This document shows, in pieces, positions 21,001-24,000 of a stretch of 26,049 bases of DNA. This DNA comes from Bdellovibrionia bacterium (lineage in GTDB: Bacteria > Bdellovibrionota > UBA1018). Made by a program: the position numbers. The DNA lies in NCBI GenBank assembly GCA_045805065.1, contig JBJMMA010000037.1, forward strand, positions 1 through 26,049, given 5' to 3'. How positions within the stretch are numbered: position 1 is the stretch's first letter; each line of letters begins with the position of its first letter.

Positions 21001-24000
21001 TTATAAAGAATTCAGCCACGAACCAGCTGATAAAGCCCGCTACATCATTTTGACAATGTATGACGTCACGGAACGCGTAAGCACCCAGCGCATTATCCAG
21101 TCCCAGCAAGATGAGCTTCAGCGCTACAGCAAGCTCGCTTCCCTGGGCGAGATTGCCGCAGGAATCTCCCATGAGATCAATACGCCCCTCAACGTGATCA
21201 GCACGAAGACCGATTTCTTGAAACGTCTGGCGGCTCGTGACCGATTGGAGAGCGGGAAAGTCACTGAGACCTCCAACGATATTGAGAGGATGGTTAAAAA
21301 CATTGCGGATGTCATCGTGGGCCTGAAGTCGGCAGTCAGCCACGACTTCGATGGCGCAAAAACTCAGAACTTAAAGACCCTGATCGAAGAAGCCGTCAAT
21401 CTTTGCGGGTTCAAACTGCAGCAAAGAAACATCCGAATGCAGCTTGAGCTGCCTCAGAAAGATATTTCCGCTGAGTGCCATGCCGTTCAAATCGTTCAAA
21501 TTCTCGTCAATCTGATCCAGAACTCTGTCGATGCCATCTCGCAACTCGAGGAGCGTTGGATCAAGATCCAGCTTCGCAAGTCCAGTGGCAAGGCGGAGAT
21601 TTTGGTCACCGACAGCGGAAAAGGCATTGATGAGAGCTTGGCAGAAAAAGTGATGACACCGTTCTTCACGACCAAGAAATCCACGAATGGTACCGGTTTG
21701 GGACTCAGTCTCTCCCGCAATATTGCCCGTCGTCACGGCGGGGATTTACTGCTCGTACCAGGCAGCAAGAATACGACCTTCAGGGTTGAATTACCCATAA
21801 AACAAGGCTAGGTATTTCTCGTCATGATCTCGAAACCTGTATCATTTCTCATCGTTGAAGATAGCGAAGATCTTTGCAAGGGCTGGGAAGACATCTTGTC
21901 GATCGACGGCCACCAGGTGAAATATTTCACCACGGGGCATGCCGCCTTGCGTGCTCCCCAAGTCTTTTCTCAATGCGATATTCTGGTGAGCGACTATTAC
22001 CTTCCAGACATCAACGGGATTGATCTGATCACGAAGATCCGCGAATCGCGTCCGACTCTGCCTGTGATCTTACTCACCGGATCCAAAGATCCGGCAGTTC
22101 GGGAATCCATCAAGAAGATTCCCAACGCTCTGCTGCTTCACAAGCCGCTGGGAATTGATGAGCTTGAGAACGCGGTCAACCGCATTCTGAGTGCTTAATT
22201 TTCTAATGCCACTTTTTCTAATGCCACTTTTTCTAATGTAAGAAGCGATTGAGCTTCTTCTCTTGCACGGACTCCGCGATTTCCTCGCGGGTGGCGTCGC
22301 GCACTTCGGTGGCCTCGATATCAAAGACAAGGTCCTGGCCCGCGAGCGGATGATTTGCGTCGAGCACGATCGAATCCGCGTCAATCTCAATGACCTTGTA
22401 GAGGCGAATCTGAGATTCATCGACCTGAACCTGGATGGAGTCTCCAACCTTTAATTGATCACTGGAAGGAACCGACTTACGTCGAACCTTGCTCACCAGC
22501 TCCGGGTCATAAAAGCCAAAAGCTTTTTCGGCCGAAACAGGAATGGATCTTCTCTGACCCTCTTTCAAATCCTGAAGTCCTTCCACCAGGCCTTGAAGGG
22601 GCACGGGGACTCGATCCTTGCCCAGGTACGTAATCACGTCGCGATTATAGGTAGAGCTCAAGACTTCGCCCAAAGTGTTTCTGAGGGTGCAGTGAAAAGA
22701 CACGACTTGAGCTTTTGCATGAGACTTCGTCTGAGTTTTCATGAATGCAACCTTTCGATGATGACTAATAATGTTAATGCTGCAGTTGCTAGGGCCCGGC
22801 AGACAGGCAAATTCAACTCAATTGGGAATGCCTATCTTGTTATGCAAGTTCCTGTCGCACCGACTGCACCGGTGACGCATCAGCAGCGTATGCGCCGCAT
22901 AAGAAATACGTAGGGCAAGCTAGCCTCTTTCAGGCTAGCACAATCCCACTTTAACTAGTTGATTTACTTAGAATGATTGTGATTAAAGTCATTGATCAAC
23001 GAATCACCTTGCGGCTCGACCGGGCCACTGGTGACACAGCTTGGCAGAATCTCATTCCTCTTTAGCGTGAATTCTGCTATATTCGTAGTGTAGTTTAATC
23101 AGCCTACTTTCGAGTCTGCGGGCATAGTGCCCATATCCTCCGAAAAGCGGCACCCGCCTGAGTCTAGTTAGAGACTATTTTAGGAGGTTCTATGGGTAAG
23201 AAACTTTATGTTGGCAATCTGCCATTCACCGCAACCGAGCAAGAATTGACCGATGCTTTCGGCCAATGTGGAACGGTTGAATCCGCAAAGATCATCACCG
23301 ATCGCGACACCGGCCGCTCCAAAGGCTTTGGTTTCGTCGAAATGTCTTCTGACGAAGAAGCTCAGAAGGCTATCAGCCAGTTCAACGGCGCCGATTACGG
23401 CGGACGCCCGATGACTGTCAATGAAGCAAAGCCAATGGCGCCTCGTGAAGGCGGCGGTGGTGGACGTGGATTTGGCGGCGGCGGCGGCGGTGGACGCGGC
23501 GGCTTCGGCGGCGGCGGCGGACGTGGTGGTCGCGATGGCGGCTCCCGCGGCGGCAATCGCTGGTAATTAGCCACTCAAATTTCGTATAACCGGGGAGTGC
23601 AAGCTTTGCGCTCCCCGGTTGTTTTTTGTCCGAATCGTTTCCCTCAAGAGAAAGCCGACTGATCCGATGCAGAACTCCAACCTCAAACCTGGAAAAAATC
23701 AGTTCAAATGCTTTCACTGCCGACTCATTTTTTCGAATAAAGATGGCGATTGGTTTCAATGGGAAGACATGCAAGTTCATCTTTGCAAAGCTTGCGACAA
23801 GCTGACCGAGAAAAAGCCTGAGCGCTCCAAGCGCTCGAATTGAACCCAAAGCCAATTTTCTTATCTCAGCCTCCTCACCTATTAACATTTGGGCCGACCT
23901 ATTCAGCCAATTCACTTAGGTAGACCGCCCAAGGAGTGCTTTTCATATGCAGTATTTCAACGAACTCAAGCTCCCTCTCGCGCTCGAAAAGGCCATTCAG

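Follow-up and report, generated by a model that had tools for sequence, protein, structure and literature searches.

A candidate two-state leader RNA of RRM-protein genes in the Bdellovibrionota

The 5' untranslated region of an mRNA for a small RRM-type RNA-binding protein, located at about 23090-23198 of the window (the complete stretch of 26,049 nucleotides of Bdellovibrionia DNA analyzed here), is, in our judgment with slightly better than even probability, a structured riboregulator that can adopt two mutually exclusive folds of near-equal energy. In one of these a 5' hairpin is formed, in the other the Shine-Dalgarno (SD) box and the start codon are predicted to be paired. The leader is most likely the translational switch of a cold-shock-like RNA-chaperone regulon. 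Judged by covariation among aligned leaders and by structure prediction, the best-supported structure is the 5' hairpin, rather than the anti-SD helix.

The RRM locus and its transcript context

The conserved motif GAGUCUGCGGGCAUAGUGCCCAUAUCCUCC (= GAGTCTGCGGGCATAGTGCCCATATCCTCC) is found at 23112-23141, 51 nt upstream of the ATG (23192) of the RRM gene. The relevant features of the region, all on the forward strand, are as follows:

23075-23083, +, extended -10 promoter box TGCTATATT, predicted only, from a regular-expression match
23100-23151, +, 5' stem-loop of about 50 nt with four helices, matched by covariance model R1 with 56.6 bits
23128-23141, +, shared strand UGCCCAUAUCCUCC, 3' hairpin arm (fold 1) or anti-start/anti-SD strand (fold 2)
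23149-23158, +, small hairpin P2 (GGC ACCC GCC), predicted to lie inside the masking helix in fold 2
23160-23176, +, inserted, lineage-specific hairpin, AGUCU 23161-65 with AGACU 23172-76 (predicted fold)
23183-23187, +, SD box GGAGG, whose partner in fold 2 is CCUCC 23137-41
23191-23198, +, start-codon stretch UAUGGGUA with the ATG at 23192, paired in fold 2
23192-23566, +, gene for an RRM_1 RNA-binding protein of 124 aa with a Gly/Arg-rich tail (Pfam RRM_1, E 4.5e-25)
23586-23622, +, terminator-like hairpin and T-run 3' of the RRM gene
23667-23843, +, small CxxC...CxxC (zinc-ribbon-like) ORF, 53% identical to the ORF behind the hairpin in L088
23947-25140, +, DEAD-box RNA helicase gene (Pfam DEAD and Helicase_C)

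The copy in the window has GGCACCCGCC as its middle box instead of GGCUCCCAGCC and carries the extra hairpin at 23160-23176, which contains a second copy of GAGUCU and is present, among the sequences aligned, only in the window and in the same-genus relative L011. In the predicted folds, the GGC of P2 becomes part of the basal helix of the 5' hairpin when fold 1 forms; covariation of P2 is weak, with pairs 62/97 and 63/68 no better than shuffles.

From the extended -10 box a transcription start near 23090 is predicted, and the hairpin lies about 10-15 nt from this predicted 5' end. A match to TGnTAnnnT was found in 84 of the 136 leaders, mostly about 22 nt upstream of the hairpin, and a TATC[TC]A promoter box is shared among leaders. 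A strict sigma-70 scan of 22700-23700 returned no promoters. RNA-library contigs from a relative of about 94% identity (four runs from three studies) span the leader together with the ORF; none covers 22900-23066 and the four longest pieces start at 23072, 23104, 23112, and 23117. As the contigs stem from a relative and have no DNA run alongside, neither the missing upstream cover nor the depths bear on the start site or the level of expression.

Structure and covariation of the two folds

Fold 1 consists of a base helix (23102-04 with 23149-51), a U-rich helix (23108-11 with 23142-45), the pairing of GAG 23112-14 with CUC 23138-40, the internal loop UCUGC/AUAUC and an apical helix in which GGGC(A) 23120-24 pairs with (U)GCCC 23128-32. 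The minimum free energy (MFE) structure of 23100-23151 (-17.8 kcal/mol) has this shape, and almost all of 138 leaders gave the hairpin when the 56-nt stretch was folded alone. With RNAalifold, 52 leaders likewise yielded the 5' hairpin and not the SD-masking helix that had previously been reported from this program. The earlier description of two exclusive folds sharing GCCC was borne out, except that a stem-loop of about 50 nt, which also uses CUC, takes the place of the 4-bp mini-hairpin as competitor of the masking fold.

Among 136 MAFFT-aligned leaders, two-sided changes were found in 11 of the 17 hairpin pairs, amounting to 95 two-sided cells as compared to 41.5 ± 5.3 in shuffled alignments, none of 500 shuffles, which ignore relatedness, reaching the observed value. 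All four apical pairs covary (AU 15, AU 10, UA 6, and AU 1), and one basal pair occurs as UG 45, AU 39, and UA 28. In a model-aligned set of 101 sequences, which includes 16 that do not belong to the order, pairing is maintained in 97.7% of the hairpin cells and covariation is seen for 8 of 12 pairs, while GAG:CUC, the pairing that would sequester the anti-SD strand, exhibits no covariation in these sequences. The change from GGGC/GCCC to GGAC/GUCC noted in the survey was encountered again, now as part of a much extended body of covariation. In the apical helix G.U cells outnumber A.C cells by 20 to 1, and the covarying basal pair contains 46 U.G as opposed to 2 A.C/C.A cells, an asymmetry that points to a sense-strand RNA rather than to a symmetric DNA site. 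Although unpaired, GAGUCU and the internal loop do not vary within the order; outside it the internal loop loses conservation and becomes paired. An alternative helix, GAGUC:GGCUC, was rejected upon by-eye reading of the alignment, where changes to GGCAC, GGCGC, GGCCC, and GGCUG are uncompensated and GAGUCU stays constant. Single-sequence folds had also been cited in the survey; the structure of 23090-23215 (-35.7 kcal/mol) is ordinary, with z = -1.24 and 22 of 200 shuffles as stable.

In fold 2, the strand GCCCAUAUCCUC is predicted to be able to pair with the SD box and the start codon. The MFE structure of the full leader (-32.1 kcal/mol) joins 23128-35 with 23191-98 and 23137-41 with 23183-87. 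The duplex of the window's anti strand with its own start site has a computed energy of -18.0 kcal/mol, compared with -8.4 ± 2.8 kcal/mol for the controls, 1257 start sites with an SD box from the same genome, only five of which equal it; over 125 RRM leaders the mean is -14.3 kcal/mol. Two-sided changes affect 9 of the 19 pairs of the masking helix, with 61 two-sided cells vs. 31.7 ± 4.5 upon shuffling (0 of 500, the shuffles again ignoring relatedness). Pair 45/148, the most variable one, can form in 87 of 135 cells where 77.8 are expected (p 0.003) and is unpaired in the other 48, and pair 54/103 can form in 86 of 124 cells where 65.2 are expected. Alignment column 54 covaries with one partner per fold. 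Across the alignment, the pair A23135:U23191 is represented by AU 67, GC 12, GU 5, UA 3, and other combinations 48.

A tree-aware test, in which changes were counted on supported branches of a FastTree phylogeny of 240 nt of 125 RRM genes, gave no support for pair 54/103 (1.5 pairs concordant, 1.1 opposite) and was without power, since just 1-3 independent pairs fell on such branches. The covariation support for the masking helix seems real yet weaker than that for the hairpin, and it is gone in the tree-aware test. Part of the helix is furthermore supplied by the SD box and the Met-Gly codons, whose conservation has other causes; the leaderless RRM gene on contig C252 likewise begins with ATGGGT. 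The two folds were both obtained again for 12 leaders of other families. The survey's interpretation that SD box and start codon are masked is partly supported: the complementarity itself is retained, but the masking helix is not the best-supported structure.

The two folds are predicted to be mutually exclusive and nearly isoenergetic. Either fold could be enforced in 120 of the 136 leaders, for which the energy difference averages -0.9 kcal/mol at 37°C and ranges from -0.7 to -1.2 kcal/mol between 5 and 45°C, fold 2 being lower in 63-75 of the 120. A purely thermodynamic thermometer is not indicated, because the computed difference hardly shifts with temperature. According to the prediction, the start site in the hairpin state pairs weakly with a second box, CCCA...CCUU. 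As it does not become free of pairing in predicted fold 1, an unambiguous "on" state is not apparent. This local fold (CCCA:UGGG and CCUU:GAGG) features only 5 two-sided cells and a covariation score of 0.063 vs. 0.053 in shuffled alignments and is kept here as a prediction, without the status of a supported helix.

Distribution and associated genes

A BLAST search with the 96-nt leader identified four copies in the same genome, on contigs C37, C195, C49, and C144. The genome encodes seven RRM-like proteins according to tblastn, the first four of which carry the motif, such that the previously reported four carriers stand and the stated total of six RRM genes does not. Of the 116 genomes of the order, 90 contain the hairpin according to the covariance model. 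The conserved core was present in 69 of these 116 at E ≤ 0.01, counting the genome under study, in good agreement with the 68 given before, and its reported tie to RRM genes is corroborated by 51 of 54 core matches that are situated 29-59 nt upstream of an RRM ORF. The element had been reported as absent from other families of the Bdellovibrionota. With the sensitivity of a covariance model this is no longer true: 22 of 128 genomes of the phylum from outside the order match the model, and several other families carry the leader, complete single-contig genomes among them; family f20 is represented by complete genomes.

The genes downstream of 138 unique leaders encode RRM proteins (128), basic proteins (4), zinc-ribbon proteins (3), DEAD-box helicases (2), and one other protein. 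The leader predominantly belongs to RRM genes, as originally proposed, but not exclusively so. Zinc-ribbon-type ORFs with a leader hairpin of their own occur in other genomes (L088, L094, and L107); a helicase in L034 that is 62% identical to that of the window is preceded by the hairpin, and the leader in L032 likewise precedes a DEAD-box gene. The zinc-ribbon-like ORF of the window has no Pfam family at cut-off, and the two small proteins, zinc-ribbon and basic, have neither a named family in Atlas look-ups nor a Pfam match above cut-off. In ten non-RRM leaders, the duplex of anti strand and start site averages -10.1 kcal/mol, which is near the control value, and for the copy on contig C248 it amounts to -9.1 kcal/mol, with 243 of the 1257 controls as good. 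As start-site masking is near background in non-RRM leaders, the hairpin must have another role besides masking.

The leader has no Rfam match at E ≤ 10 in 22700-23700, and six further leader loci have none at E ≤ 1, which is in line with its original description as a conserved RRM leader outside Rfam. Literature searches on Bdellovibrio, RRM proteins, cold shock and structured RNA, whose scope did not extend to subscription journals and supplements, found no paper on the leader.

Proposed mechanism and relation to known systems

In the model put forward here, the 5' stem-loop 23100-23151 would hold the strand UGCCCAUAUCCUCC in its 3' arm (fold 1). Translation would be permitted in this state, since the start site would be held just by weaker local pairing. 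When freed, UGCCCAUAUCCUCC would pair with the SD box and the start codon (23183-23198), and this second fold should block binding of the 30S subunit. The preferred effector is the RRM protein itself, which may act via the invariant pyrimidine-rich 5' arm GCUUCUUUCGAGUCUGC; its candidacy derives from the invariant unpaired bases and from the nature of the gene product. When bound to GCUUCUUUCGAGUCUGC, the protein would prevent fold 1 and favor the masked fold 2, resulting in negative autoregulation. Cold could relieve repression in one of two ways, through titration of the RRM protein or through a kinetic trap that retains the fold 1 formed during transcription. The same hairpin appears to tag a small regulon of genes for RRM proteins, a DEAD-box helicase, a zinc-ribbon protein and a basic protein, which looks like a cold-shock or RNA-chaperone set.

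A less probable explanation, albeit one to be taken seriously, is that the hairpin chiefly serves as a tag that determines the fate of the mRNAs of a regulon, for instance by acting as a 5' stabilizer, by directing processing or by binding a dedicated regulator, while the complementarity to RRM start sites is secondary or incidental. The hairpin is the one element that the four gene families share, masking does not exceed background in most non-RRM leaders and the distance to the predicted 5' end is short. In addition, the unpaired GAGUCU and internal loop show no variation within the order, and the shared TATC[TC]A box suggests further co-regulation. These observations are opposed by the far better fit of the anti strand to RRM start sites than to controls, both in the window and on average over the 125 leaders, by some covariation across the masking helix, by the persistence of the masking fold in distant families of different sequence, and by the near-equal energies in 120 leaders, which would be an odd coincidence.

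Cold-induced sets comprising RRM proteins, DEAD-box helicases and small basic proteins are known from cyanobacteria and Escherichia coli. The resemblance of the genes found here to such sets, the two exclusive folds and the fact that the 5' fold is complete before the start site is transcribed would also fit a protein-free cold sensor of the cspA type, with a permissive 5' hairpin that is kinetically trapped in the cold and relaxes to the masked fold upon warming. We consider this improbable in view of an equilibrium energy difference that is nearly independent of temperature, strictly conserved unpaired bases that suggest a sequence-specific partner, and the presence of three cold-shock-domain genes in the same genome. 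For a small-molecule riboswitch with its ligand in the conserved internal loop, two states, conserved internal and apical loops and an SD-masking expression platform could be cited, but the aptamer would be very small, the loop is unconserved and paired outside the order, and the regulated genes all encode RNA-binding or RNA-remodeling proteins and none a metabolic protein or a transporter, rendering this option very unlikely. A DNA operator for a dimeric transcription factor downstream of the promoter is scarcely credible: GGGC-N5-GCCC and its flanking arms form inverted repeats in the DNA and conserved promoter boxes are nearby, but the excess of G.U over A.C cells fits a sense-strand RNA, the helices are interrupted and have unequal arms, and the element always resides on the sense strand just upstream of a start codon.

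The two-state leader proposed here has several counterparts. The cspA mRNA of E. coli, with its cold sensor and cold box, possesses a long 5' untranslated region in which alternative folds expose or hide the start site of an RNA-chaperone gene. A DEAD-box helicase gene has related leader elements, and the cspA product is autoregulatory. Both systems represent leaders of RNA-chaperone genes with alternative folds, predicted ones in the present case, and an element in common with a DEAD-box helicase gene. They differ in that the proteins concerned here contain an RRM instead of the cold-shock domain of CspA, in that no Rfam match to the cspA thermoregulator family was obtained at E ≤ 10, and in that temperature dependence is not evident in the computed equilibrium energies. 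In the leaders of the ribosomal proteins S15 and L20, an RNA-binding protein represses its own mRNA by stabilizing a fold that entraps or hides the start. Self-repression through a start-hiding fold is likewise proposed here, with putative binding of the leader by the RRM protein; in contrast, the leader described here is common to unrelated genes.

In cyanobacteria, the conserved 5' untranslated region of rbp genes is reportedly connected with low-temperature transcript accumulation. As here, the leader belongs to small RRM genes, from another phylum, but the reported effect concerns accumulation of the transcript and not masking of the start site. The rbpA1 5' untranslated region is the subject of that study (Ehira et al., 2005; FEMS Microbiol Lett 251:91; cited in PMC4152365). 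The Chlorobi-RRM motif (RF01697) is listed by Weinberg et al. (2010; PMC2864571) as a probable cis-regulatory RNA, not a riboswitch, in 5' untranslated regions of bacterial RRM genes. It shares with the leader analyzed here the character of a candidate structured cis-regulatory RNA in that position. However, the RF01697 model does not match the leader and its lineage is the Chlorobi; furthermore, the leader presented here is found upstream of helicase and small-protein genes as well and comes with an explicit alternative fold that is predicted to mask SD box and AUG.

More tentatively than the two-state model for the RRM leader itself, we propose that the hairpin may be the RNA-level signature of an undescribed post-transcriptional regulon that extends throughout this phylum of Bdellovibrio-type predators, and that the two-state leader may read the free RNA-chaperone capacity of the cell in the form of RRM occupancy. 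Such occupancy would change with cold or RNA load and would co-ordinate the RRM, DEAD-box and two small-protein families, and the regulon would constitute an RRM-built counterpart of the CspA cold-shock circuit.

Outside of the cyanobacteria, little is understood about bacterial RRM proteins. The leader would define a structured RNA family without a match in Rfam, and the complete single-contig genomes that carry it may make bench tests feasible. It would join four gene families in one probable regulon and thereby provide the first functional hint for the small zinc-ribbon and basic proteins. Two folds of near-equal predicted energy, together with an alignment column that covaries in each of them, would offer a compact model of a two-state translational switch, and if it is true that the RRM protein is the effector, the system would present a clear case of autoregulation by a bacterial RRM protein.

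Distribution and gene context of the leader

BLAST detects four copies of the leader in the 262 contigs of the genome under study (G000), where they precede four of seven genes for RRM (RNA-recognition-motif)-like proteins. Across the order UBA1018, BLAST with the 96-nt leader found matches in 69 of 116 genomes, and among the first 54 core matches an RRM ORF followed 29-59 nt downstream in 51. As a search against Rfam returned no family for the leader in the window or for six other leader loci, the survey's finding of a conserved leader 5' of RRM genes that belongs to no Rfam family is confirmed. 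The exact core pattern occurs at 43 loci in a collection of 185,579 species, all titled Bdellovibrio-type, Oligoflexia or unclassified proteobacterial MAGs. A covariance model built from the 5' hairpin of the leader and searched against genomes of the order and the phylum matched 90 of 116 genomes of UBA1018 and 22 of 128 from other orders; 17 of 20 fetched matches from outside the order stand 5' of RRM ORFs.

The locus in the window comprises the following features.

17675-21811: 1378-aa ORF, upstream neighbour
21824-22198: response-regulator receiver gene, upstream neighbour
22233-22742, minus strand: FKBP-type prolyl isomerase gene, upstream neighbour
23075-23083: predicted extended -10 box TGCTATATT (pattern TGnTAnnnT)
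23112-23141: leader motif GAGTCTGCGGGCATAGTGCCCATATCCTCC, 5' of the RRM gene
23183-23187: GGAGG (Shine-Dalgarno, SD), between motif and ATG
23192: ATG of the RRM gene
23192-23566, plus strand: RRM_1 gene (Pfam RRM_1), 124 aa
23586-23622: terminator-like hairpin, 3' of the RRM gene
23667-23843: zinc-ribbon-like small ORF directly after the RRM gene, homologue (53% identity) of a leader-bearing zinc-ribbon gene
23947-25140: DEAD-box helicase gene, 3' of the RRM and zinc-ribbon genes, homologue (62% identity) of a leader-bearing helicase

In other genomes, the zinc-ribbon-like and helicase families each possess their own copy of the hairpin, and one RNA-library contig of a relative joins the RRM ORF to the beginning of the zinc-ribbon ORF. 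The hairpin also occurs 5' of non-RRM genes, as apparent when unique leaders are classed by downstream gene.

Downstream genes of 138 unique leaders
RRM protein: 128
Basic protein of about 65 aa (copy on contig C248 of G000 included): 4
Small zinc-ribbon-like protein: 3
DEAD-box helicase: 2
Unclear: 1

The C248 copy (C248:25472-25523), a diverged fifth one in G000 recovered with the covariance model, precedes a 64-aa basic protein (MGQPNRATQGKRNRE...; L153:121-388 in the set of loci) that matches no Pfam family and has homologues in three other genomes, likewise with hairpin; a tRNA gene lies on the opposite strand just 3' of it. The same model found no hairpin before the three cold-shock-domain genes of G000 (C247:13549-13734, C164:13050-13205, C196:3-77). 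Since these proteins are also encoded, the RRM proteins are no simple CspA-type substitute here.

Of 136 leaders, 84 have a predicted extended -10 box, TGnTAnnnT, about 22 nt 5' of the hairpin, which would place the latter near the mRNA 5' end. RNA-library contigs of a relative with about 94% identity (four libraries, three studies) span leader and ORF and are silent on strand, ends and expression level. A TATC[TC]A box, typically TATCTAT, is present in 37 of 136 upstream regions (6.3 expected by shuffling, maximum 15), e.g., those of L013, L016, L019, L023 (second copy), L032 and the C195 and C144 copies of G000; the window copy lacks it. In 23 of 24 cases its start lies exactly 20 nt upstream of the TG that opens the extended -10 box. 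The TATC[TC]A box accompanies leaders of all four gene classes, RRM, helicase, zinc-ribbon and basic protein, and may thus serve them jointly as a -35-region element or as the site of an activator. By eye, a short GTTAGT box recurs in many leaders (e.g., L013, L016, L019, L031, L036), close to where transcription is predicted to start and some 10-20 nt 5' of the hairpin.

The 5' stem-loop

The SD-masking helix had been proposed as the consensus fold; RNAalifold on 52 leaders gave a 5' stem-loop instead, composed as follows.

Helix 1, base: GCU:GGC
Helix 2: CUU:RAG
Helix 3: invariant GAG paired with CUC of the supposed anti-SD
Internal loop: UCUGC/AUAUC, between GAG:CUC and the apical helix
Apical helix: GGGC:GCCC
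Tip: loop AUAGU

In the window the stem-loop occupies 23100-23151 (-17.8 kcal/mol alone), and almost all of the 138 unique leaders adopt its shape when the MFE of the 56-nt stretch is computed. The single-sequence fold energy of the window leader as a whole (23090-23215) is ordinary (z -1.24). When 136 leaders are aligned with MAFFT, two-sided changes appear at 11 of 17 pairs, including all four apical pairs and one basal pair (UG 45, AU 39, UA 28); there are 95 two-sided cells, a count that 0 of 500 shuffles attain (41.5 +/- 5.3 after shuffling), although shuffling ignores relatedness. In an alignment of 101 sequences fitted to the model, and hence biased towards the structure, 97.7% of cells are paired and 8 of 12 pairs covary. 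GAG:CUC is invariant and shows no covariation, so its pairing is deduced from covarying neighbours.

The predicted masking helix and the two exclusive folds

Base pairing with both GGAGG and UAUGGGUA is open to the complementary 3' strand of the hairpin (23128-23141). The MFE of the full window leader (-32.1 kcal/mol) contains these masking pairings, which enclose a small hairpin and a lineage-specific inserted one. In the latter (23160-23176), shared with a same-genus relative, the invariant hexamer GAGUCU occurs once more, either by chance or perhaps as an additional binding site. The duplex of this strand with the window start site amounts to -18.0 kcal/mol compared with -8.4 +/- 2.8 at 1257 SD-bearing start sites of G000, only five of which do as well; the match is specific. 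In the 10 non-RRM leaders this strand fits the start site less well, at a mean of -10.1 kcal/mol vs. -14.3 in 125 RRM leaders, which implies that the hairpin must do more than mask.

Two-sided changes affect 9 of 19 masking pairs (136 leaders; 61 cells vs. 31.7 +/- 4.5 shuffled, 0 of 500 shuffles reaching as many, relatedness again being ignored). The pair of A23135 with the nucleotide immediately 5' of the ATG is AU in 67 leaders and GC in 12, and 48 leaders are unpaired there (p 0.003); alignment column 54 covaries with a different partner in each of the two folds. As a counterweight, conservation of the SD and of the Met-Gly codons has causes unrelated to the helix, and a tree-aware test, with 1-3 usable pairs only, gave no support for columns 54/103.

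As both folds use 23128-23141, they exclude each other. The exclusivity claimed earlier therefore stands, while the competing fold is the 5' stem-loop rather than the small GGGC/GCCC hairpin. When each fold is imposed on the 120 leaders, out of 136, whose constraint pairs are canonical, the energy difference averages -0.7 to -1.2 kcal/mol at temperatures from 5 to 45 C, and 63-75 of the 120 have their lower energy in the masked fold. Both folds recur in 12 leaders of other families despite divergent sequence. In the hairpin state, a second box, CCCA...CCUU, is predicted still to pair weakly with the start site; its local pairing covaries weakly.

Regulatory interpretation

From these predicted folds, we lean towards a two-state translational leader. 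The masked fold would be the off state and the 5' hairpin the permissive one, as it removes the strong anti-SD strand. The effector would most likely be the RRM protein itself; by binding the 5' arm, which is invariant and rich in pyrimidines, it would favor the masked fold and establish negative feedback; cold could act via titration of the RRM protein or kinetic trapping.

A distinctly less probable alternative is that the hairpin chiefly affects mRNA fate or is bound by a dedicated regulator. A cold sensor working without protein appears unlikely. A small-molecule riboswitch is very improbable, and a DNA operator is the least credible reading, given that the apical helix has 20 G.U cells for a single A.C cell, a ratio that suits RNA of the sense strand rather than a palindrome in DNA.

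In its proposed function, the leader is akin to the cspA leader with its cold box in E. coli and to cyanobacterial rbp 5' UTRs. The nearest known motif is Chlorobi-RRM (RF01697), which has its gene context, RRM genes, in common with the leader (PMC2864571), whereas its model does not match the leader and its lineage is a different one. The leader family appears to be undescribed, with an architecture and a probable regulon of its own.
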